A DNA stretch of 64,000 bases, taken from sequence record NC_041936.1. The stretch is one strand, 5' to 3'. The position numbers and the translations under genes were made by a program. Positions 2,392-20,341 of the stretch are shown here, piece after piece. This DNA is from Escherichia phage ECD7. The stretch's first letter is position 1, and every line of letters starts with the position of its first letter. The notes below the pieces were generated by a model. It saw only the letters and a list, made by a program, of their open reading frames with translations, ran no database searches and was not told where the DNA came from.

Positions 2392-2586
2392 TTATACATT
2401 TTCAATCACCCATTGCAGATGGGCTTCTGCGTCAACCAGTTCAGCGCGGCTTTTCTCTAAGCACTTGCTGTATTCTTTACGTTCCCAATCAGCTATTTCG
2501 TTTTTCAGGACTTCTTCATAGTAAGCAATTACGCCTTTCAGGTCTGAAACTTTACGGCTTGCCAGTTCGATGTAATGGTTACGCAT
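2392..2586 (-). CDS. hypothetical protein
   Basis: 64-aa minus-strand ORF, tightly packed. Confidence 0.4.
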   Translation of the reverse strand: MRNHYIELASRKVSDLKGVIAYYEEVLKNEIADWERKEYSKCLEKSRAELVDAEAHLQWVIENV

Positions 2587-2782
2587 TTTGATTCTCCTTT
2601 GTTACTAGATAACGAATTTGGTCTTGCATTGCGATCAGTTCCCAGCGTGCTACTTTCATCATGGAAACTGACTCTTTGAACATAATATTGGCTTTTTCCT
2701 TCTCCCCTGTCAAGTAGATTTCTGCAATTTTTTCACAAAATTTTTGAGTTTCTTCATTCTTAAATGGTTTCATATAAGTCAA
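2579..2782 (-). CDS. hypothetical protein
   Basis: 67-aa minus-strand ORF immediately downstream of an early promoter. Confidence 0.4.
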   Translation of the reverse strand: MTYMKPFKNEETQKFCEKIAEIYLTGEKEKANIMFKESVSMMKVARWELIAMQDQIRYLVTKENQNA

Positions 2783-2798
2783 CCTTTTGTTTTCGATG

Positions 2799-2836
2799 GG
2801 GATATTATGATATATCCCCTATCTGGTGTCAACAAC
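2799..2836 (-). promoter_or_regulatory. sigma70-type early promoter with GGGGATAT/ATATCCCC stem-loop around the -10
   Basis: Minus strand reads TTGACA-17nt-CATAAT; plus-strand tgtcaa at 2827-2832. Confidence 0.55.
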
Positions 2837-2839
2837 TTT

Positions 2840-3139
2840 TTAATCTTTTTTCAGTGCATCCATTACTCGCTCTGCGATCAGTTCTCGTAAGCACTGATAG
2901 CCATGATATTTGATGGCAATGTCACGCAGATCATTAACCAGTTCCCGTACTTCATGGTCTTTCAAATCGTCTCTGTATTTCGACTTAACCGTGTCTTTAG
3001 GTGGATTGCGAATAACCTGAAAACCTTGTTCTGCAATCACTGCGGCTTCTCGCTGGCGTTCATGCTGTACTGTATTTTTGATCAGGTCTACTTCCATGAA
3101 CTTTGTCATACTCATCATCATGTTATTCTTTTTGCTCAT
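2840..3139 (-). CDS. hypothetical protein
   Basis: Likely start ATG at 3137-3139 (MSKKNN...) downstream of promoter at 3170-3203; track ORF extends to 3220. Confidence 0.45.
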   Translation of the reverse strand: MSKKNNMMMSMTKFMEVDLIKNTVQHERQREAAVIAEQGFQVIRNPPKDTVKSKYRDDLKDHEVRELVNDLRDIAIKYHGYQCLRELIAERVMDALKKD

Positions 3140-3169
3140 TATTAAATCCTCATAAAAGAAAAGGGAGAC

Positions 3170-3203
3170 TCCCATTATAGAGAATCTCCCTTGTATGTCA
3201 AGT
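3170..3203 (-). promoter_or_regulatory. sigma70-type early promoter
   Basis: Minus strand TTGACA-16nt-TATAAT just after the gene 39 stop. Confidence 0.5.
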
Positions 3204-3204
3204 G

Positions 3205-5028
3205 TTATGATTGCATCCAAATTTTTCGGCGGTCTGAATCTTCGCTATAGAGCAAATCGAATAGCTCTTTATAGTTTTCCGGTAACGTGATGATTTCCAT
3301 TACAGGATCGTTGATCACGCGATGATAATCTGATTCTGTAAGAGATGCTAACCCTTTGATATATCGAATGCTATAACCTTTGATATTATCTCGGTCGTTC
3401 TCGAAATCTTCTAGGTCATAATACCATCGAACATCATCACCTTTCTTTGGTTCCGCAATGATAATAGGTGTTTTGATAAACCGGATTCGTCCATCTTCGA
3501 ACAATTCAGGCCAACGTGCAAAGAAAGAGATCAGACTAGGTTTAATAGACCCGATCCCGTCAGTATCAGCGTCGGTCATAATCGCAATATTTTTGTATTG
3601 CATAACTTCCAATGCATCAACACCAAATTGCAAGCCAGTGATCGCCATGATGTTAAAAATTTCGGCGTTCTTAACGATCTTTGCCTCCGGTTGTTCCCAC
3701 GTTGTAAGAGTTTTGCCTCGCAACGGGAAACCTCCATGTAAATCTGGATCACGTACAGAGACCAGATAGTTGATCGCGGAATCACCTTCCGTCAAAAACA
3801 GGGTAGTTTCTGCGTCAGTTCCAATAAGGTTAGCTTTAACGTGTTTTGCTACCTTAGCCCGTTTCGCTGCTTTTGCTGCCTTAGTCGCTGCCGCTTTATC
3901 TGCTGCCTCTTTGCGTGCCAGGACTACAGCAATAATAGGCATGATAATGTTTTCTTTCTTCGCAATGACTTTAGCCAGCTTTTTAAAATCAAGATCAATA
4001 TGACGCTTGATATCACCAGTTGGATTAGTCAATCGTTCTTTTGTCTGTGAATCAAAACGGAGGTTTGGCAATTCACGAACAATAAGAATACAGGTCAATC
4101 CAGACTTAACCGCCGCTTTAGTAACATCAACCTTATGTTCTTTCTTGATTCGTTTTACAATCTCTTCACAAAGATCATCTATCACGTAGTCTACGTGTGT
4201 TCCCCCGTTTTTGGTAAACAGACCATTAGCAAAGGATACTGATTTAAAACCTTCTCCCTCGACCGCAGGAACTAGGGCAAGTGAAAAGTTTTTATCTTCA
4301 ATGACAAACGGATCATCATTGTATAGTTTAGCATAATCCTTGAACTTACTAACAATACGTTTACCATTAAACTTAAACGTGATCTTAGGAAAGATTACGC
4401 TCAATGATTGCAGACGGTCATGAACAATATCTAAAACAGAGTTGTCCATCATATAACCTTCGAAGTGGTCAAAGTCTGGACAAAATGTAACCTTCGTTCC
4501 CTTCAATTTTGATGGTTTTGATGACCATGTGATATTTTCAGCACCATTTGTGCATTGAACGGTCATTTCTGTTTCACCGTCACAAGTTACACCAGTAAAC
4601 CAATCGCTAAAGAAATTTGACAACGACGACCCCACACCGTTCATCCCTTGCGTTAATCGATTTGTATCATCAAAGTTAGATCCGGCCTTTGTTCGTGTCC
4701 ATGCGGCTACAGGTTGCGGAATCTGCGTACCCTCTGGAGTAGTAACCATATGTTGAGGAATACCGCGACCATTGTCTGTTACCGTAACAATATTGTTTTG
4801 GATATCTACGCTAATCACATTGGCAAATTCAAAATTAGTGCGGATCGCCTCGTCTACAGAGTTGTCGATGATCTCATCAATGATTTTAACCAGCCCAGGA
4901 ACATATGAAATTTTTGTCCATTTACCGAACAGGAAACGTTGATGTTCTTCGTAAGTTGTTGATCCTATATACATTCCTGCACGCTTAAGGACATGTTCAC
5001 GATCAGATAAAATGCGAAACTCACTCAT
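3205..5028 (-). CDS. 39: DNA topoisomerase II large subunit, fused gp39/gp60 form (GyrB-like ATPase)
   Basis: 607 aa; strong resemblance to T4 gp39 N-terminus (ILSDxEH, GMYIGS, VPGLVK, DNGRGIP) continuing through the region that is gp60 in T4. Confidence 0.93.
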   Translation of the reverse strand: MSEFRILSDREHVLKRAGMYIGSTTYEEHQRFLFGKWTKISYVPGLVKIIDEIIDNSVDEAIRTNFEFANVISVDIQNNIVTVTDNGRGIPQHMVTTPEGTQIPQPVAAWTRTKAGSNFDDTNRLTQGMNGVGSSLSNFFSDWFTGVTCDGETEMTVQCTNGAENITWSSKPSKLKGTKVTFCPDFDHFEGYMMDNSVLDIVHDRLQSLSVIFPKITFKFNGKRIVSKFKDYAKLYNDDPFVIEDKNFSLALVPAVEGEGFKSVSFANGLFTKNGGTHVDYVIDDLCEEIVKRIKKEHKVDVTKAAVKSGLTCILIVRELPNLRFDSQTKERLTNPTGDIKRHIDLDFKKLAKVIAKKENIIMPIIAVVLARKEAADKAAATKAAKAAKRAKVAKHVKANLIGTDAETTLFLTEGDSAINYLVSVRDPDLHGGFPLRGKTLTTWEQPEAKIVKNAEIFNIMAITGLQFGVDALEVMQYKNIAIMTDADTDGIGSIKPSLISFFARWPELFEDGRIRFIKTPIIIAEPKKGDDVRWYYDLEDFENDRDNIKGYSIRYIKGLASLTESDYHRVINDPVMEIITLPENYKELFDLLYSEDSDRRKIWMQS

Positions 5029-5127: not shown

Positions 5128-5301
5128 TCATGACACGCGCACATTTTTATCGTAATACCCGCCATTAATCCCGCGCGGGGCAGTTAATCCCTGTTTGCAT
5201 TCTTTACCACATTCAGGGCATTCTGCCTTTTCACGCTCGGAAATTTTGCGGATTTTCTGAAATTGACCGTGTTCTTCACAAGAATAATCATATAATGGCA
5301 T
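5128..5301 (-). CDS. FmdB-like zinc-ribbon protein
   Basis: Internal start MPLYDYSCEEHG...; CxxC...CPECG pattern; track ORF 5128..5382 overlaps dexA. Confidence 0.5.
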   Translation of the reverse strand: MPLYDYSCEEHGQFQKIRKISEREKAECPECGKECKQGLTAPRGINGGYYDKNVRVS

Positions 5302-5302
5302 A

Positions 5303-5971
5303 TTATCCCCTTTGTTTCTTAACTGAATTTGGATCTGGATTTTCTGGCAAGTCTTCCAGACCCATAGCATAACGTTGTGCATAGATTAGCATAAGAATAT
5401 CGCGAGCGCAATCATGAATTGCATCATGCGCGATAAATCCGTCTAGCGTACCCATTGGTAACGGGCATTCACACATACCACGATGCATCAATGTACGCTC
5501 AATGGCGGTGCGAACGTCTCGGATGTTCCAGAATCGCACAGGTTCAAGATTGAACGTCTCTCGTGTATTGTATGCACGGCGGATCATATCAACTAGTAAC
5601 GGAATATCAAACGCATTACCGCGTGACCACATTACGGATTTAACCGGATCTACCCCTACGGATTCACAGAATGCGTTAAAACGCGCTAAACCTTCTTTAG
5701 TTGATACTTCCGTACCATTTGTGATTAATTGCTTTCTCATGCCTTCTGAGGCGGTATTCTTCCACCATTCAACCACACCATGATCAAACACCCTTACACC
5801 TTTCTGGGAAGGAATATCAAATTTTACCAGAAAGGAATTGTCAACCAGTTCTTTAAATGTAGGTGGGTTGTGCGGATCTTCTTTAAATCCGATTGCCGCC
5901 ATATTGATCACCGCCCCATCAGGCGGATAACCTAAACTTTCAAAGTCAATCATTAAATCCACTGGAAGCAT
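5303..5971 (-). CDS. dexA: exonuclease A (DEDDh 3'-5' exonuclease)
   Basis: Start ATG 5969-5971 preceded by GGAGG; MLPVDLMIDFESLG... resembles T4 DexA; synteny. Confidence 0.85.
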   Translation of the reverse strand: MLPVDLMIDFESLGYPPDGAVINMAAIGFKEDPHNPPTFKELVDNSFLVKFDIPSQKGVRVFDHGVVEWWKNTASEGMRKQLITNGTEVSTKEGLARFNAFCESVGVDPVKSVMWSRGNAFDIPLLVDMIRRAYNTRETFNLEPVRFWNIRDVRTAIERTLMHRGMCECPLPMGTLDGFIAHDAIHDCARDILMLIYAQRYAMGLEDLPENPDPNSVKKQRG

Positions 5972-5972
5972 T

Positions 5973-6278
5973 TTAAATATCCTCCGCGATATGACGGAAC
6001 AACTCCAGATCGTTTTTATCCAGAATGAAACCGCTACAATCAATAATCCCGTTACCGTAATTATCGGTTAACAGTCGGTCCGTTGCCATGTATGCGCGTA
6101 CTTTGTTGTTAAAATTCATTACGTGTTGTGCATAGTCACAATGAATCTTTTGACGGTTCCACGCGACAATTGATTGTAGATGTATGACATTAGCCATATC
6201 ATTAATAACAACCATATCAAAAACCTCGCTTAGTGAAATGTTCTGGCATTTTATTGATACATACAGCTTGGTAGTCAC
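5973..6278 (-). CDS. hypothetical protein (dexA.1 position)
   Basis: 101-aa ORF; its 5' region is part of a local direct repeat. Confidence 0.4.
   Translation of the reverse strand: MTTKLYVSIKCQNISLSEVFDMVVINDMANVIHLQSIVAWNRQKIHCDYAQHVMNFNNKVRAYMATDRLLTDNYGNGIIDCSGFILDKNDLELFRHIAEDI
6190..6269. repeat. direct repeat copy 1 (gene end/start junction module)
   Basis: ccatatcaaaaacctcgcttagtgaaatgttctggcattttattgatacatacagctt, repeated imperfectly at 6387-6447. Confidence 0.7.
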
Positions 6279-6386
6279 GAGATTTTTTTTGACGAATTAA
6301 GAGCTACAGCCAAAAAATCCTGTAACTGTTTGTTTGTCATTTTTGGCTTACACCGCGTATCTAAACTCTTCGTTCTTCTGGCTTCA

Positions 6387-6447
6387 TTAGCCATATCAAA
6401 ACCCTCGCTTAGTGAAATATTCGATCATTTTATTGATACATTCAGCT
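6387..6447. repeat. direct repeat copy 2
   Basis: ccatatcaaaaccctcgcttagtgaaatattcgatcattttattgatacattcagctt. Confidence 0.7.
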
Positions 6448-6573
6448 TCACTGTCGCCGGATACGTTCCATCCATAATGACCCCAACTAAAACACATGGT
6501 AACAGTTCCATTGTGACGGCGTACCGTCACATCATCAAATTCTGGGATACTTCGCATAATCATAATAATTTCC

Positions 6574-7965
6574 TCAAATATAGTCTACTCGATACCGCGC
6601 ACGGGTAACACCCACATATAATAACTGCATTGCCAATTCAAAGTCAACATTGTCTGTACACATGCAAGGAGTATACAGGAACACGCGGTCTACGCTGATC
6701 CCTTGTGACTTATGAATGGTGCAAGCTGGTAATGCTTTTACATTCAAGAACATACGCTTCATCGTCCAGAATGAATCCCAATCTGGTTTAAATTTTGGAT
6801 TCTCTTTCTTCATTTCGCGATATTGTCCGGCGACCGTATTCAGATAGATAGAGAAAATGTTCTTCTGACGTTGTTCTGTCAGAATGTTGATTTCTACTAA
6901 ATCTGGTTTATCTGTAGTGATTCCGACTGCATCTAAACCTACTTTCTGATTTAGGATTTCTTTGTCTTCGTCATCATCGACGCTTTCCACTTTCAGAGTA
7001 TATCCTAAAACTGGTTGCGGATCTACCCCCGTGCAACGTAATGTAAATTCACGCGGGATGACCTCTTTAACTCGGATCATCTCACCATTGTTAAAAATAA
7101 CATTGGGAATCTTCTTCCCGCGTTCATCTCGCAGATATTCGATCAATGGTTCCTGAGTAACCAGAATTTCATCTACAATCACTGGTTCATCGGTGTTATA
7201 AACGCGCTTACGTACAATTTCATTGAGTTTTTCGACGCTCTTGTTAGTGTAGGCCAGAATACGGTTTTCTAGAAGGTCTTCCGGCGTTTTAACGGTTTCG
7301 AAATAATGCTTCATAAACTCCGGCAGAGTTGAGCTATGGAATACACCCTCGTTACCGCACTGCTTTTCGAATACCCATTTACCGTTACGGACAGCGGTCG
7401 CCACATCAATTATTGGTGCATTGGACCGTTTAATCTCTGTGAGTTCTACATTCTGGAATCTTTCATCGGTGAAGAAAGGAGAGATCGACGTTGCACCGCT
7501 CGGATCAACTGGTCGTAACTGGTACAGATCACCAACGGCAATAATAACAATTCGACCGTTGATACTCTTCATGAGAATATCAAATAGTTTCTTATCGACC
7601 ATACTCGCTTCATCAACAATGATGATCTGAACATCATCTAGCTTAGGAGTATCTTTTTGCTCAAATACTTGAGTATCTTCATAGTTGGTCGGGTTTAGTC
7701 GCAGTAGTGCATGTAAAGTAAATGCTTGACGACCTACCGCTTTACTCAAAACTTTTTTAGCCTGGTGGGTGGGCGTTGCCAAAACCACACCAGTTACACC
7801 ACGGCGGACCATTTCCTGAACAATGAATTTCATCATTGCGGTTTTACCAGTACCCGCCGCACCCCGGACAGTTGTATGCTTCTTTTGTTCAATGCGTTTC
7901 ATTAGAACATCAAAAGCATGTTTTTGCCCGTCTGTTAACATATCGAAAGTTAATACTCTGCTCAT
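6574..7965 (-). CDS. dda: Dda DNA helicase (SF1)
   Basis: 463 aa; GAAGTGKT Walker A; LTDGQKHAFD and C-terminal LLYVGVTRARY resemble T4 Dda. Confidence 0.93.
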   Translation of the reverse strand: MSRVLTFDMLTDGQKHAFDVLMKRIEQKKHTTVRGAAGTGKTAMMKFIVQEMVRRGVTGVVLATPTHQAKKVLSKAVGRQAFTLHALLRLNPTNYEDTQVFEQKDTPKLDDVQIIIVDEASMVDKKLFDILMKSINGRIVIIAVGDLYQLRPVDPSGATSISPFFTDERFQNVELTEIKRSNAPIIDVATAVRNGKWVFEKQCGNEGVFHSSTLPEFMKHYFETVKTPEDLLENRILAYTNKSVEKLNEIVRKRVYNTDEPVIVDEILVTQEPLIEYLRDERGKKIPNVIFNNGEMIRVKEVIPREFTLRCTGVDPQPVLGYTLKVESVDDDEDKEILNQKVGLDAVGITTDKPDLVEINILTEQRQKNIFSIYLNTVAGQYREMKKENPKFKPDWDSFWTMKRMFLNVKALPACTIHKSQGISVDRVFLYTPCMCTDNVDFELAMQLLYVGVTRARYRVDYI

Positions 7966-8279
7966 TATCCTAAAATCCTCACCTTGCGAACACAGATAGT
8001 ATTGAGTTCTCGCCGTACCCGTTCTTTCTCATATTCAGGAATTTTGTATTCTATACCATCCCGAACAATTTCAGAAGACCGGATTATACCAAATTTTCTT
8101 TTAGGCACAACCTTGTATTTCGGTTCACCTGCCAATAGACTCTCACAATAATCTATCTGATCACACATTGACGCTAACGCAGCATCATGGGTTTCGCAAG
8201 TTAGGACGCGACCCTTCGCGTCCACTGAGTATTGAAAGAATCCGTCTTTATCACGATAACATACAGCAAATACATGCAT
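7965..8279 (-). CDS. hypothetical protein (dda.1 position)
   Basis: 104-aa ORF, start overlaps dda stop. Confidence 0.45.
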   Translation of the reverse strand: MHVFAVCYRDKDGFFQYSVDAKGRVLTCETHDAALASMCDQIDYCESLLAGEPKYKVVPKRKFGIIRSSEIVRDGIEYKIPEYEKERVRRELNTICVRKVRILG

Positions 8280-9094: not shown

Positions 9095-9095
9095 C

Positions 9096-9599
9096 TTAAA
9101 TTAAAGAAAATTTGTAAATCTCTATCAGATCGCCGTTACACGCGTAAACTTCCTCGATCTCATCAAGGATCATGGTCGTCCCTGTCTTGTATATGCACTC
9201 TCGCTCATCTGCCAACATAGCATACAAAGACAGTCGAGTAGTCGGATTGTCATACTCTTTAGACACCACTCGGTCAATAGCATGTTCGTAATAATTCATG
9301 CAAGGCTTGGTAGGTTTTATTGCAATAATCTTTCCTGTTGCATAAACATCGGTTGCAAAGTCCTCTGCTGTTGATTGCAGTGGCGTAAAGCTCATAGGAC
9401 GCTCTACAACGAAAGAATCACCTACAATTAAGGTATCCAGCTTACGGCCTTCTCTTTTGCTCACACCGCGATACAAGGCTTCATGATGCACTAACCGTTC
9501 AGTCTTTTCGATCAATCCATTAAGGATCGACATATCGATATTTTCTTTAGAGTTCATCACTTCATCAATGATGTTAAGTTCTTCTGGTGTAAATTGCAT
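9096..9599 (-). CDS. ADP-ribosyltransferase (ModA/ModB-like)
   Basis: 167 aa; R (LYRG), S-T-x (QSTAE) and E-x-E (ERE) motifs in the order expected for R-S-E ARTs; T4 modA/modB position. Confidence 0.55.
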   Translation of the reverse strand: MQFTPEELNIIDEVMNSKENIDMSILNGLIEKTERLVHHEALYRGVSKREGRKLDTLIVGDSFVVERPMSFTPLQSTAEDFATDVYATGKIIAIKPTKPCMNYYEHAIDRVVSKEYDNPTTRLSLYAMLADERECIYKTGTTMILDEIEEVYACNGDLIEIYKFSLI

Positions 9600-9600
9600 A

Positions 9601-9663
9601 ATAAAAAAGCCTCCAATCTTTCGACGGGAGGCATAATAAAACCATTATAGAGTAGTGTCAACT
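9601..9663 (-). promoter_or_regulatory. early promoter plus terminator-like hairpin that sequesters the ART gene Shine-Dalgarno
   Basis: Minus: TTGACA-17-TATTAT, then GCCTCC-12nt-GGAGGC hairpin, U6, ATG at 9599. Confidence 0.5.
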
Positions 9664-9668
9664 AATTT

Positions 9669-10187
9669 TTAGTAGCCGCGTTCTTGACGGGCGAAGTTTT
9701 CAGCATTTTTCAGATAGTACAGAATAAAGAGTTCTTGAGCGTCAATACCCAGCGGGATCATCTTGGACAGAATGAAGTGGATCGCGTCCACAAATTCAAA
9801 TTTCACTTCAAGCTGATCTTCTGGTGACAGTTCAGAGAATTTACGCGCTCGCGCTTCCCCGTGGTTCTTTTTCCACATTTTCCAGATTGCGCTTGCATCT
9901 TTACCATTGGACATTCCACCCAGCGATGTGTAAAGCTCTCGTGTTTCGTCTGCGATAGCGTCATCCATCCGTTGCATCCAATCCAGCATTTCACCGCAAG
10001 TCTCTAGCTTAGTTGGGTTTGGGACCCAATCAAATTTTTCGGATAATGCAACCTGCAAACCAGTTTGCATTTCGAGCATCACCTGAAACGGATCTTTACC
10101 TTCTGCAATCGCGTGATGATATGCGGCGATAGCCGCGTTAATATCTTTTTCGTTAACCAGACCAGCACAAGAATTAAATTCTGACAT
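9669..10187 (-). CDS. 56: dCTP/dUTP pyrophosphatase gp56 (MazG-like)
   Basis: ATG at 10185-10187 with GAGGTG SD (track start is GTG at 10193); position between mod and 61. Confidence 0.65.
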   Translation of the reverse strand: MSEFNSCAGLVNEKDINAAIAAYHHAIAEGKDPFQVMLEMQTGLQVALSEKFDWVPNPTKLETCGEMLDWMQRMDDAIADETRELYTSLGGMSNGKDASAIWKMWKKNHGEARARKFSELSPEDQLEVKFEFVDAIHFILSKMIPLGIDAQELFILYYLKNAENFARQERGY

Positions 10188-10201
10188 ATTCACCTCATTA
10201 A

Positions 10202-11230
10202 TTAAAATTTACAATATTTCATAAACCGCATTTTAGCCATCAGACCTTGTACGGTGTTCTCTTTGATATATTCCATGATCTGGTCGCGTGTAGCGCCCTC
10301 GTCCTGAATCATGGCGTTAACGTCTTTAGAATGCCACGGGCAACGATCCCACAATACAATCTTTTCCCCTGCATTGATAAACTTTTCCAGTCGGTGCATT
10401 GTATCGGCTGACCGTGGTTCCGCATCAAGTACAAACACTCGCTGGTCTGGGAAAGGGATTTCATCTAATCCCAAAGTACCGCCAGTAATTGCACACCCGT
10501 TATCAATAAACAATGAATCGATCGGACCTTCTAAGAAATACACTGGCTTACTCGGATCGGCGCGTTCAAGACCATAGACCTTACTCGCCAACTCGTGAGT
10601 TTTAATCGTCATATATTTGGTCTTTCCGTAATCCTTTCTCAATGCTCGCCCCTGAATGGATTCTATCTTGTTCTCGCGGTTAAAGATAGGAATAACTAAA
10701 CGCGGTTCAGGTTGTGGATTCTTGAAAGTATCAGCCTTAATGTGATTTGCTACCTTTTGCCATTCTCTCGTGAAATAAAGAAGATCCCATTTATCGTGGG
10801 GAATGCAACGATCACTGACATACTTTATTATAGGATGATTAGCCGGAAGAGTATCTAATCTCTCGCAGAAAGGCAATGTTTGCACTTTCTTAATCTCCGG
10901 CTTTTCTACCTTTTTCAGTGGCTTGAACGTGGTGTTCTTGTGGTCGCCTTGTTCCTTCCGTCGTTCCATAAGCCATTCCCTGAATAGATCCGGCTTATAT
11001 TGTTTAAGAAATTCACCTAACGGCTGATTGTAGTTACAGTTGAAACATCCGGCTCGCAAACTATCTTTATAGGTATAGATACGGAATCGCGCCATTGTGC
11101 TATTCTTTTTGGAATCTCCGCAGATCGGACAACTTGCTACTAACGTAAATGAGTTAGTATGTAACCGCTTGAAATTTCGTTCGCCGTATAATGCTTTTTC
11201 GGCTATTTCATAATCTGCGTAGTAAATCAT
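10202..11230 (-). CDS. 61: DNA primase gp61
   Basis: 342 aa, same length as T4 gp61; N-terminal CPICGDS...CFNCNY zinc ribbon. Confidence 0.9.
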   Translation of the reverse strand: MIYYADYEIAEKALYGERNFKRLHTNSFTLVASCPICGDSKKNSTMARFRIYTYKDSLRAGCFNCNYNQPLGEFLKQYKPDLFREWLMERRKEQGDHKNTTFKPLKKVEKPEIKKVQTLPFCERLDTLPANHPIIKYVSDRCIPHDKWDLLYFTREWQKVANHIKADTFKNPQPEPRLVIPIFNRENKIESIQGRALRKDYGKTKYMTIKTHELASKVYGLERADPSKPVYFLEGPIDSLFIDNGCAITGGTLGLDEIPFPDQRVFVLDAEPRSADTMHRLEKFINAGEKIVLWDRCPWHSKDVNAMIQDEGATRDQIMEYIKENTVQGLMAKMRFMKYCKF

Positions 11231-16548: not shown

Positions 16549-18025
16549 TTAAATGTCAAACAGGTCCGTAAGCGATGCCACCTTTTCATATTGCAGCTTT
16601 GCAGCCGTGGTAATGTTCTCCAGTGGTTTGACGAAAGTCTTATTAAACAACAAAGGCCAGTCTAACCACTTCAACACTTCTGATTCAATTTCTGGCGGAA
16701 TACGAGTACCAGACAACCAACCAAAACAGATTTCTCCAAACGGATTTCGATCTTTAAGCGGTACAATCATAACCTTCTCGCCTTCACGAATCGGATCTAG
16801 TCCGAATTTTCGAGCATTACGATTATAACACAATACACTCTTAACCGCATACGGACAACCCTTAATCGGATACCCGTTTGAATCGCTGTATTTCTGTAGG
16901 TTGTTTGCAGATGATACCGCAGCAACCTCAAGATAATCAAGTTTTCTAAACTCTTGCTCAAAAATACCGTAGTATTCCTGTAGCGATTCTTCCCCTTCCT
17001 GCAACATACGGCGAATACATTCTTTCAGTGATTTCTGACATGCTTTAGGGGTGGAGCTACGTTGCGTTTCCAAGCCCATGATTTTTAGCTTAGGTTCAGC
17101 AAAGCGCGTTCCTTCCATATCCCAAACATTAAGAGCATAACGCTTTTTACCAGTCCAGAATCCACCGATACCCGCAGATTTCAACGGAGGACCAGCAATT
17201 GCCTCACGGTCCATAAACATCAAGTGCTCATAGTTATTCATGTACTCGCATAACTCGCGATATCCCTTGTCGATAATAGGTTCCATTCGATGTTTACCGA
17301 AATTATCAAGGAAGTCAACAAGTTTTTCGGTATCGTCGAAACGGTCTTCCCCGCCAACCTTATCAACAACATTGTTAACCAGCACATAAACGGAGTCAGT
17401 ATCACAATAACGAACATATGCAAAATCAGTTGTTCCGCAAAGCTCGTTTAAGTATTCGTTAATCTTACGCTCAATCCACTGAATTGCAAGCTGACCAAAC
17501 AGTGTGATCGCACTAGCGTTACGGAGATCATAAAAACGGAATTTAGGATTCCCCAACGCACCATAAAGGGAGTTGATCAAAACTTTACGAGAAAGCTGGT
17601 TTGTATTGCACAAGATCGACTCGTCTTTACATTCTTCCAGCAATTTCTCTAAGGCATCTTTACTTAATTCAGAAAGCATCGATTTAAACGCTTCGTCAAA
17701 GTCGTGACGCACTTCAACGCTATAGCTAATGGTTCCCCCATAAACATGATTTTCATCGTGTAGAATCGCTTTACATAGTTCAGCATTGCGATCACATGCC
17801 AGCATCATATTTTTGTACTGCTTACGCTGATCAAATACCTTTTTAATCTCAATAGGTACGATACCATGAATATCTTTTCGATACATCCACCCGTTAGGCG
17901 AGCAAGAATACTCATCACTCGGACGTGGTGCAGTTTTATTGATATATTCGTGCATCGGTGCAGCATCAAAAGATCCAGCGATTGTTTCAGGCGAAATATT
18001 AACCTGACGGATGATTGATGGATAC
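16549..18025 (-). CDS. 43: DNA polymerase gp43, exon 2 (motif A YPS onward; palm/thumb)
   Basis: Frame open from 18025 (YPSIIRQVNISPET...); LINSLYGALGN, YCDTDS, KKRY motifs; stop at 16549-16551. Confidence 0.9.
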
Positions 18026-18165
18026 CATTATGTTCAGCGCGGTTCGCTACTCCCGCGCCCGTTCTCTTGCGAACTGCTACATGTCACCATGTAGATCAGA
18101 CTATATCACATTCTCATAGAGAATCCTGCCATTTCGAATCGCTTGATTCTACTCTACTCGGTTCG

Positions 18166-18990
18166 TTACCCTTTCGATAGTCGTTGAACAACTGCATCTT
18201 TAAGCTCATTTTGATCAAACGGTGTTCTCTTACAGTACCCGCTATAATTCTTGGCAAAAGGTTTCTTCTTACCAAAGATCTCTTTTCCTGAATTATGTGC
18301 TTCAACAAGAAAATTCACCATTTCATCAAATGTGAAACTTGTAAATTTAGCATAAGTTTCATTACGTTTTGACATTATTTTACTCATAACTTCCGGTCGT
18401 TTAGACGCTGAATTTTCGCGCTTCTCGCCAGCATTAAATGATACTAACTCACCGGAAACATATCTAGGATCATCACAACTAACTCTAAACCGATTTCCTT
18501 CCTTATCCTTAACGATAACAGTATTCTTTAGCTTTTCTGCCATAGAATCAAGACCTTTTCGTATAGTGTCCTCATCAGCCCCGAAATATTTCTTTCCGCT
18601 CATATCGGTTCTGGCTTTTCCGGTCTTGTTTTCGGATATTTTCAGTCTAACTTCCTCTCGCTTGGCTGGGTTATTGTCTCCAGCGAATGCATCTTTGGTT
18701 AACGCCTTCACTTTATCGTCATAAGATCCTCTAGAGATGAAAGCATATGCTCTCTTGCATTCACCGTTATTGAATATTAAGCACAATAACCGATGCGCCT
18801 CGACGTGGTCTTCAAACTTAAGCCTAACAAGATTCCATTTATCTAACCGATATTCAGGGAACATTGACTTCGGGCATATATGATGCACCTCGGAATATTC
18901 TTCACCCTGATACGGATTAGACACCAGTTTAATGTAGTCGTTTAATGCTTCCTCGTTATGTATTTCGTACTTTCTTAAAATGTCTTTCAT
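18166..18990 (-). CDS. intron-encoded HNH homing endonuclease
   Basis: HNH motif EVHHICPKSMFPEYRLDKWNLVRL...HVEAH; ATG at 18988-18990 preceded by GGAGG. Confidence 0.8.
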   Translation of the reverse strand: MKDILRKYEIHNEEALNDYIKLVSNPYQGEEYSEVHHICPKSMFPEYRLDKWNLVRLKFEDHVEAHRLLCLIFNNGECKRAYAFISRGSYDDKVKALTKDAFAGDNNPAKREEVRLKISENKTGKARTDMSGKKYFGADEDTIRKGLDSMAEKLKNTVIVKDKEGNRFRVSCDDPRYVSGELVSFNAGEKRENSASKRPEVMSKIMSKRNETYAKFTSFTFDEMVNFLVEAHNSGKEIFGKKKPFAKNYSGYCKRTPFDQNELKDAVVQRLSKG

Positions 18991-19035
18991 CTCGCGCCTC
19001 CAATGTATATCAATATTTATATACATTATAAGACA
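18991..19035 (-). promoter_or_regulatory. T4-type late promoter (TATAAATA) and RBS for the intron endonuclease
   Basis: Minus strand TATAAATA (plus 19024-19031) about 33 nt upstream of the HEG ATG. Confidence 0.5.
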
Positions 19036-19139
19036 CGTTAGCTCAAAATGCAACTGCTGCTGATTGTCTCCTTAGAGATTTCCCAGCAATTAAGCAGGTT
19101 ATTCGATCACTGTCACCAGTGAAAGCCCCATATCAGTTT

Positions 19140-20341
19140 AGGGAAGTAAGGTCAAAGCTCATCATCCAACGATAAGCATTAGGTACTGGCTCTTTTACGA
19201 ATGCGCCAGGATAAGTCTGCTTAGGCTGTATCTTGTTCTCTGGTACTACTTTACCCTCAGCTTTCAGAGATCCGAAGATAATAGCATCCCATACTTTCAT
19301 CGGGTTATAAACATGGTTAAATTTAATCTTTGCATAGAAACATAGACTATACACCAGATCGATAAATCCACGCTTTTTATCAATCGCCAGCACACGATCA
19401 ACGTCGCCGATGTTATAATCGATGTAAAGTTGATGATTGTCATCACGCAATTTCTTTAACGGACCATCATAATCAACCTTACCGATTCCTGTCTCATATT
19501 CAGCAACATAATCTAACGCATATGTTGGTTGAGTCGTAAAGCTAAATTTCTTGTACAGGTCAATATAATCAAGGCTTTCGATCCCCATGATCGTAAATGC
19601 TTCACGCTCGTTGCCAAAATCATCCTGTGAGATTCTGGATTTAATCTTACCGCACGGGCTTAGACGGTTAGCGGTTCTACTTCCGAACTTATTACTGATA
19701 CGTTTAATGATATATGGAATATCGAATGTTTCTGTGTTCCAGCCAGTGAAACCAACGGGTCGGTTTTCCTCAAAGAATCGGATGTATTCTAACAGCAATT
19801 CATCTTCTGTGTCATAGACGTTATAAACAACGCGCTCTACAATATCAGGTCGAAGAATAGACTTGCTTGCTTCCCAGATTTCACCGTTTTTTCCTTTCAA
19901 ATCAAATACAAAGAAACGATCATGTACGGAATCATAATGCGTAATTGCATCTATAGGATATTTCGCTTCTTCTGGTTTAGGAAATTCTGGGGCAGTGACC
20001 TCAATATCAACCCATGCTACACGGATTTTATTTCGGTCATATCGAATCTCTCCTTTATACGTATCGGACAGATAGGAGATGATAAAATCATCCATCCCTA
20101 GTGCCTCTTGCCCCATCTCCCCCATCTTTTTACGCCATTTGTTGGCCTCGTTCATAGATGGGAATTTTTTAGCAATGCAAGGCTTGCCGTAGATATCTTT
20201 ATAATTCGTAACCATACCAGGCGCGGCATGATGAAATAAAGTTGGCGTATATTCAACGTAACGCTCTTGTTCTTGTCCAGCATCATCAATATAACGCTCG
20301 TAGATCTTATCACCCACTCGCTCACATGACAGAAAATACAT
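19140..20341 (-). CDS. 43: DNA polymerase gp43, exon 1 (N-terminal and 3'-5' exonuclease domains to motif A)
   Basis: ATG 20339-20341 with AAGGAG SD; ERYIDDAGQ, FDIPYI, ends FDLTSL at splice site. Confidence 0.9.

Follow-up and report, generated by a model that had tools for sequence, protein, structure and literature searches.

A putative group I intron within gene 43 (for DNA polymerase) of phage JSE, with a truncated endonuclease gene, was reported in a single sentence by Petrov et al. in 2010 (Virol J 7:292, PMC2993671). In 2012, Adriaenssens et al. named its counterpart in LIMEstone1, a member of the Ackermannviridae, "putative intron I-LimII" (PMC3296691). Here we analyze this element in Escherichia phage ECD7, within a 64,000-nucleotide (nt) stretch of sequence record NC_041936.1 (the window), to which all coordinates refer. 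Gene 43 and the intron are on the minus strand. Judged by its sequence and by covariation, the insert that splits gene 43 is a complete IA-type group I ribozyme, P1 to P10 with P7.1 and P7.2, and it is very probably competent to splice. In essence this intron was known before, and introns of its kind are classical. What is new is a covariation-tested structure, a distribution across virus families at the same codon, and the finding that the window carries an intact endonuclease allele, the existence of which was inferred in 2010. The literature outside subscription journals yielded no structure, exact site, or intact Krischvirus allele of this intron. The original prediction, which proposed a group I intron here, had asked whether relatives with an intron at this site were described, and JSE and LIMEstone1 provide the answer.

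The source of the window is a Krischvirus, an RB49-like "pseudo-T-even" coliphage related to T4. MIZ4 and MIZ5 share 99.0% identity with the window over the 1.6 kb around the intron; for Cognac, G5211, kvi, JEP8, and others the figure is 98 to 99%. JSE, of the same genus, carries this element at the identical site. In the parts that both have, the two intron sequences agree at 99.4%, but a 650-bp internal deletion leaves the JSE intron at 464 nt, whereas the window has an intact open reading frame (ORF) of 274 amino acids. I-LimII shares the insertion point (...NSL/YPH..., with a slash marking insertion points throughout), the CCCU exon end, the GGGG guide, and the place of the ORF in P6. Its core is ~75 to 79% identical to that of the window in the aligned pieces, and its endonuclease is 37% identical, with the same C-terminal VQRLSK overlapping the core. 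It differs in belonging to another virus family, in its longer 3' tail (1,183 nt in total), in an ORF that runs into P7.1, and in a weaker P10. A table in the LIMEstone1 paper classes I-LimII as GIY-YIG (PMC3296691). However, EYSERHHILP...WNIVNL...HVEAHRLL in the LIMEstone1 protein (L004, 2630-3508) is an HNH-type motif, and the protein can be aligned with the product of the window ORF; from its sequence the published label appears to be wrong.

More distant relatives are also known. The T4-type nrdB intron, which encodes the HNH enzyme I-TevIII (intact in RB3, truncated in T4), is likewise a phage IA intron with its ORF in the P6 region and a truncated endonuclease variant. The window core is 80 to 82% identical to it over the 95 nt of P7.2-P3'-P8-P7'. 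The host gene and insertion site are different, however, and the T4 I-TevIII remnant has no convincing similarity to the window ORF. Gene 43 of the Aeromonas phage 25/Aes type is a T4-related family B polymerase (PolB) gene with a group I intron in 43B, the core of which is 70% identical over about 120 nt, but this intron is at another site, has no ORF, and interrupts a gene that is truly split into two cistrons. Passages in two papers present it as thought to be mobilized by a free-standing homing endonuclease gene (PMC2993671, PMC2988022). The window core is 68 to 70% identical to the phiKZ intron and the Aeromonas 43B intron. Finally, the DNA polymerase introns of SPO1, SP82, and Bastille encode I-HmuI, I-HmuII, and I-BasI, HNH nicking enzymes, according to references in PMC2988022. 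These, too, are group I introns of lytic phages that encode an HNH-type endonuclease and are inserted where the DNA polymerase coding sequence is conserved. The polymerases concerned are family A enzymes, and the phages are those of Gram-positive bacteria.

The reading frame of gene 43 in the window runs through ATG AGC TTT GAC CTT ACT TCC CT/A AAC TGA, translated as ...MSFDLTSL N and then a stop (TGA, 19135-19133) two codons into the insert. The frame reopens after TAA (18030-18028) as W-YPSIIRQVNISPET, with the codon TAT at 18024-18022. The original prediction had this TAA preceding the resumption. It is present, but the codon TGG (18027-18025), consisting of the last two intron bases and the first exon 2 base, intervenes. 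Exon 2 therefore starts G/TAT CCA TCA ATC ATC CGT CAG, which encodes (L)YPSIIRQVNISPET, protein YPSIIRQ. The insert itself is 19139..18026 (1,114 nt), ends in ...GAACATAATG, and lies inside the Leu codon of PolB motif A, D-x-x-S-L/Y-P-S. Exon 1 (20341..19140, an ORF of 1,202 nt) encodes the N-terminal/exonuclease part of PolB through FDLTS of motif A plus the CT of the Leu codon; its start, ATG 20341, was placed by length from the JSE/MIZ4 exon 1 coding sequence (CDS) and the RB49 gene 43 CDS. Exon 2 (18025..16549, 1,477 nt) contributes the G of the Leu codon and continues to the stop. Together the exons make 2,679 nt, the length of gene 43 in RB49, where it is one uninterrupted CDS. Alignment with the intron-less RB49 gene and the endonuclease-deleted JSE gene showed that 19139..18026 is exactly the stretch missing from RB49. 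The boundaries, length, and in-frame resumption that had been predicted all match on the minus strand, and DxxSLYPS is split by the insert.

The predicted ligated junction joins ...ACUUCCCU to GUAUCCAUC..., and the product of the 2,679-nt spliced ORF is 100% identical, over the 160 amino acids compared, to gp43 of RB49, Sf20, GEC-3S, and MIZ6, all intron-less. This comparison with intron-less alleles, which the original prediction had recommended, both placed the insertion exactly and restored the uninterrupted protein. Because the exon lengths sum to that of RB49 gene 43 and the splice product matches four intron-less alleles, the split is not a chance pattern. That conceptual ligation restores gp43, in a phage that is viable together with ten sister isolates, is indirect support for splicing. 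Among the eight gene 43 alleles compared, all nucleotide differences are synonymous except for one V-to-A change in JK32. Intron-bearing alleles all read CTT ACT TCC CT/ and intron-less alleles all read TTA/TTG ACA AGT CT/ (the RB49 stretch at this site is TTTGACTTAACAAGTCTGTATCCATC), which amounts to six synonymous changes in 11 nt. The block of the intron-bearing alleles supplies the CCCU required for P1, and its sequence fits a co-conversion tract. On the other side of the insertion (18016-18005 in the window), intron-less RB49 has TCA ATC ATC CGT like the intron-bearing alleles, whereas Sf20, GEC-3S, and MIZ6 have TCT ATT ATT CGA. What RB49 shares here may be a footprint left in its lineage by an intron that was once lost or by co-conversion of the exon.

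The internal guide sequence, GAUAU-GGGG (GAUAUGGGG, 9 nt, 19134..19126), was read from the sequence and pairs with both exon ends. P1 is formed by exon CCCU (19143-19140) and GGGG (19129-19126), with a U.G pair at the 5' splice site, and the same CCCU/GGGG pairing is found in the introns of Pectobacterium phage POP12, the Ackermannviridae, and the metagenomic contig L140. P10 is formed by exon 2 GUAUC (18025-18021) and GAUAU (19134-19130), 5 bp, and in POP12 it has a compensatory change from a U-A to a C-G pair. The intron ends with the predicted terminal G (omega-G), G18026.

Behind the guide, all on the minus strand, comes the P2 hairpin UCACUG-GUGA-CAGUGA (19122..19107), which is in the minimum free energy (MFE) fold and has four of its six pairs changed on both sides among the same-site introns. 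The P3 5' strand CCUGCU (19098-19093), followed by J3/4, pairs with GGCAGG (18130-18125). The P4 5' strand UGCUGG (19088-19083) pairs with UCAGCA (19063-19058) around the P5 hairpin UCUC-UAAG-GAGA (19078-19067; three of four pairs compensatory). The P6 5' strand (19057..19040) pairs with 18206-18188 across the looped-out ORF as 13 bp, a bulge, and then 5 bp, so that the stem closes around the ORF; the 3' strand, with J6/7, falls in invariant alignment columns (18206..18177). The P7 5' strand GACUAU (18182-18177), in the conserved "R" element UUCAACGACUAUCGAAAG, pairs with AUAGUC (18104-18099), which follows J8/7. Between the P7 5' strand and the P3 3' strand are P7.1 (18171-18160) and the P7.2 hairpin GAAUC-AAGC-GAUUC (18149-18136). 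Helices P7.1 and P7.2 in this position mark subgroup IA. The P8 hairpin AUUCUC-UAUG-GAGAAU (18124-18110) and the P9 hairpin CUACAUG-GUGA-CAUGUAG (18094-18077) complete the core, and P9.1 (18074-18061) and P9.2 (18058-18037), both seen in the MFE fold and the alignment, lead into the 3' tail and the terminal G. Two core-like strings picked out in the original prediction are genuine: GAUAUAGUCUGA covers J8/7 together with the P7 3' strand (18099-18104), and CUCUAAGGAGACAAUC (19067-19058) takes in the P5 hairpin and J5/4 and runs into the first bases of the P4 3' strand.

We examined covariation in a 37-sequence MAFFT alignment, which included the same-site introns of POP12, LIMEstone1, KE30, CRW-SP2, ZQ1, and allotria together with 29 ORF-less relatives from IMG/VR contigs. 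The latter were found through the invariant 18-mer UUCAACGACUAUCGAAAG, which is present in more than 120 IMG/VR stretches. Paired cells made up 85.1% of the total, versus 33 to 45% when the 3' partners were slid by one to three columns. Both sides change in 49 of the 80 pairs, and none of 500 shuffles reached any observed measure. P4 and P7 are invariant in the 37 sequences. P3 is 99.1% paired (five of six pairs compensatory), P8 97.6% (six of six), P9 94.5% (six of seven), and P7.1 100%, with a G-C/C-G/U-A/A-U series; P2, P5, P9.1, and P9.2 covary too. P7.2 is 64% paired in a noisy part of the alignment. In the MAFFT alignment, P6 is misaligned past the first 3 bp, as are P1 and P10 in the rows from Ackermannviridae, and these helices were judged by hand on the raw sequences of the same-site introns. 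The P6 stem is kept with a different sequence in the POP12 and Ackermannviridae copies; in POP12 it has 10 bp with four pairs changed. The MFE fold of the ORF-deleted intron (-91.9 kcal/mol, z = -3.6) recovered P1, P2, P3, P6, P7.2, P8, P9, P9.1, and P9.2. The splice site pairings, the terminal G, the covarying core, and the identity to the nrdB intron all support the group I assignment.

The ORF in the P6 loop (18990..18166, ATG to TAA, minus strand) is preceded by GGAGG 6 nt upstream of its ATG. Its 274-amino-acid product has an HNH-type N-terminal domain, NUMOD3-like repeats, and a helical C-terminal domain. PHROG 12434, "HNH endonuclease," matches it with an E value of 6e-131. However, the ORF had no Pfam family at E values up to 0.1 and no NCBIfam family at E values up to 1, so curated profiles do not back the HNH label that it was given in the original prediction; the looped-out ORF itself exists, and the label has support from the motif and PHROG. 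A search of PDB sequences with the endonuclease returned chance matches only. Among 5.8 billion proteins we found 43 homologues (78 to 25% identity), none with a precomputed Pfam domain. Residues E34, H36, H37, P40, H62, and H66 are invariant and N53 is near-invariant across 41 to 43 of them, giving the motif E34-x-H36-H37...N53...H62-x3-H66, and a NUMOD3-like motif, NPAKR..VR.KIS, follows. AlphaFold (AF2) models are locally confident (pLDDT of 89 and 92) and put the motif on a strand-strand-helix at 33-37, 54-58, and 59-73. The motif and PHROG evidence point to an HNH-type, Mob-like homing endonuclease, which may have the beta-beta-alpha fold. The bases of P6 (3' strand), J6/7, and P7 (5' strand) double as the last eight codons of the ORF, VVQRLSKG*. 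Because QRLSK is near-invariant in the protein family, the ORF and the ribozyme appear to have shared these bases for a long time.

A putative regulatory hairpin lies upstream of the endonuclease gene (19037..18993, minus strand; 18 bp, -18.6 kcal/mol, z = -5.7). It takes up the 45 nt ahead of the ATG and buries the Shine-Dalgarno sequence GGAGG (19001-18997). A box that matches the T4-type late-promoter consensus, TATAAATA, is at 19021-19014 in its 5' arm and loop, and an RNA starting after the box is computed to be unstructured. POP12 has the TATAAATA box too, together with a hairpin over its AGGA, and in LIMEstone1 a late-promoter box is annotated and AAGGAG is covered by a hairpin. The same arrangement is described for T4 I-TevI and mobE in work cited in passages of PMC2993671 and PMC2988022. 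By this analogy, the hairpin and late box likely regulate translation of the endonuclease.

Several observations weigh against a splicing-competent intron with a regulated endonuclease gene. P1 draws on just four exon bases, and P10 of the Ackermannviridae introns is weak (3 bp, offset). The TATAAATA sequence is no more frequent in the window than expected by chance (4 observed versus 5.4 expected), so its late-promoter role rests on its position and its recurrence in POP12. The papers that we found, subscription journals being outside the search, contain no splicing, endonuclease, or homing experiment on this intron. Also, the whole window had no match to Rfam at gathering thresholds, and the 50-bit gathering score of the group I model RF00028 was not reached. 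The Rfam scan suggested in the original prediction did find the intron in E value mode, with RF00028 matching 18337-18077 (32.8 bits, E = 2.8e-6) and the 5' half of the model aligned inside the ORF. The scores of related copies put this value in perspective. The window copy has an 868-nt insert between its P6 strands. Endonuclease-deleted JSE, with a 218-nt insert, matches the full model at 42.9 bits; PC3, an endonuclease-deleted Ackermannviridae copy at the same site with a 170-nt insert, scores 63.4 bits; and ORF-less relatives, with no insert, score 59 to 91 bits. Judged by these sequences, scores drop as the insert between the P6 strands gets longer, and the low score of the window goes with its long ORF insert and not with a defect in the core. 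Because the match appears only in E value mode, a scan at the gathering threshold alone would wrongly refute the intron.

In the mechanism that we propose, the guide pairing and core fold come from sequence and covariation, and splicing, regulation, and homing are taken from group I intron and T4 homing biology. In the pre-mRNA, GAUAUGGGG would pair with CCCU of exon 1 as P1 and GUAUC of exon 2 as P10, and the P3-P9 core would fold around these pairings with the endonuclease ORF looped out of P6. An exogenous guanosine would attack after U19140, the freed 3'-OH of exon 1 would then attack after G18026, and ligation of ...UCC CU/G UAU CCA... would yield an 892-codon gp43 with a junction identical to that of RB49 gp43. 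On early/middle read-through transcripts, the 18-bp hairpin would hide the Shine-Dalgarno sequence and keep the endonuclease silent. A late transcript starting just past the TATAAATA box would be translated, as for T4 I-TevI and mobE. In a mixed infection, the endonuclease would cut or nick intron-less gene 43 near the insertion site, and recombinational repair would copy the intron with adjacent exon sequence, which would leave the six synonymous changes (CTT ACT TCC versus TTA ACA AGT) that are fixed in the intron-bearing alleles.

The distribution of the intron bears on the homing part of this scheme. Of ~55 Krischvirus genomes in the phage collection, 10 have the full intron, JSE has the 650-bp deletion inside the ORF, and the rest (~45) are intron-less. 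A homologous intron and endonuclease occupy the same SL/YP site in POP12 (protein 56% identical), in Ackermannviridae of Dickeya, Salmonella, E. coli, and Vibrio (endonuclease 34 to 39% identical), and in the metagenomic T4-like contigs L140, L142, and L143. Patchy presence, the same site across families, and the fixed synonymous block flanking it are population signatures of mobility. It could be argued instead that the intron splices but is no longer mobile, its endonuclease being inactive, decaying, or kept for another role, such as RNA folding, and the element persisting only because it is seldom lost precisely from a gene that is essential. The endonuclease gene was indeed lost independently in two families with the P6 stem kept, in JSE (464-nt intron, L001 2769-3232) and in PC3 (465-nt intron, L133 about 301-765), and it is frameshifted at the same site in Vibrio phage 1.244.A, as a homing-degeneration cycle predicts. 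The failure of curated HNH models to recognize the protein points the same way. Against this, the ORF is intact and 98 to 100% identical in ten independent isolates, and the catalytic-type residues are invariant in the 41 to 43 homologues, down to 30% identity. Intron-less targets are also common in the genus, which makes selection for homing plausible. We therefore consider an immobile intron improbable, although current mobility is less certain than splicing.

Gene 43 might also be truly split, with 43A (...FDLTSLN) and 43B assembling in trans, a free-standing endonuclease gene in the spacer, and no splicing. There is precedent, as split gp43 occurs in T4 relatives, the Aeromonas phages 44RR and 25 among them (passages of PMC2988022, describing Petrov et al. 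2010 JMB), and each of the ten Krischvirus records with the intron has two CDSs labeled "DNA polymerase" in GenBank. Furthermore, contig L141 (Logan SRR33696486_8791) has a distant relative of the endonuclease (32% identity; 2467-3238) free-standing between two gene 43 cistrons, after ...KEEKTKRNLL*, at another site. L141 had no group I core motifs, and its gene 43 looks like a true split polymerase; its upstream sequence (CCTAAATACTC...) resembles the LIMEstone1 hairpin region. In the window, however, there is no in-frame ATG, GTG, or TTG between the stop at 18030 and ATG 17955, so the original prediction's alternative of separate 43A and 43B polypeptides has no start codon for 43B there. The sole ATG at the 3' junction (18028-18026) is out of frame and opens an ORF of merely nine codons. 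A 43B starting at ATG 17955 would miss YPSIIRQVNISPETIAGSFDAAP, though the 23 codons between the 3' splice site and that ATG are conserved with synonymous changes only. By the sequence, a ribosome can reach these codons only through splicing. A break inside the motif A strand, and a spacer that holds a covariation-backed ribozyme core and a guide complementary to both exon ends, also speak against a split polymerase, which we regard as very improbable.

The least credible explanation is that the gap is bridged, in place of RNA splicing, by an intein in the protein or by ribosomes that bypass it, as they do in T4 gene 60. Both occur in phage or PolB genes, but the TGA two codons into the insert is one of many in-frame stops in the exon 1 frame, the endonuclease ORF is provided with a start codon and a Shine-Dalgarno sequence of its own, 1,114 nt far exceeds any known bypass, and the RNA core accounts for the data. 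An HDV-like (hepatitis delta virus-like) ribozyme was considered as well and rejected; a 2026 paper on such a ribozyme in Ackermannviridae is unrelated to the intron, and Rfam shows none here.

Other arrangements were seen among the relatives. In L140 (ENA ERZ27260095 k141_49174; about 5290-8125), gene 43 has the motif A intron and is interrupted a second time after ...ERNTELLKSLI*. In the second gap, of ~3 kb, there are five small ORFs and, on the opposite strand, another ORF that matches NUMOD3 faintly; the rest of DNA_pol_B follows. Four IMG/VR contigs (L073 6840-8981, L058 2770-4348, L118 about 9095-11205, and L092 548-2239) have three or four core 18-mers with P4/P7 anchors within 1.5 to 2.2 kb, and they appear to hold clusters of ORF-less group I introns in one or a few neighboring genes. 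In Acinetobacter phage YMC13/03/R2096 (L007), no feature is annotated at 2001-2451, just upstream of the CDS for the terminase large subunit. This stretch matches 78% of the ORF-deleted intron core at 71% identity and probably represents a group I intron in the terminase gene that has escaped annotation.

These findings leave the current understanding of group I introns unchanged. For annotation, they mean that gene 43 here and in at least ten sister genomes calls for a single joined CDS and an intron feature; the records now show two genes named "DNA polymerase" and one named "hypothetical protein" or "HNH endonuclease." The intron is also a clean, testable addition to the classical phage intron-homing systems, because intact, endonuclease-deleted (JSE and PC3), and intron-less alleles are available, several of them in one genus, and because homologues occupy the same active-site codon in another virus family. 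That codon, the equivalent of T4 gp43 Leu412, adjoins the steric-gate Tyr, and the endonuclease recognition sequence is therefore likely among the most constrained stretches of any PolB gene. The C-terminal VQRLSK of the ORF is encoded by the ribozyme R element in all lineages, which suggests that the intron and endonuclease are one long-associated unit. We tentatively suggest, at somewhat less than even confidence, that this unit homes on the DNA for the universally conserved PolB motif A (DxxSL/YP) and has crossed phage families, carried by an HNH-like family that has no curated profile. It may have passed between Straboviridae genera, the Ackermannviridae, and uncultured T4-like phages. In that case it would exemplify, in nature, intron homing across virus families and would offer a nuclease specific for the coding sequence of a polymerase active site.

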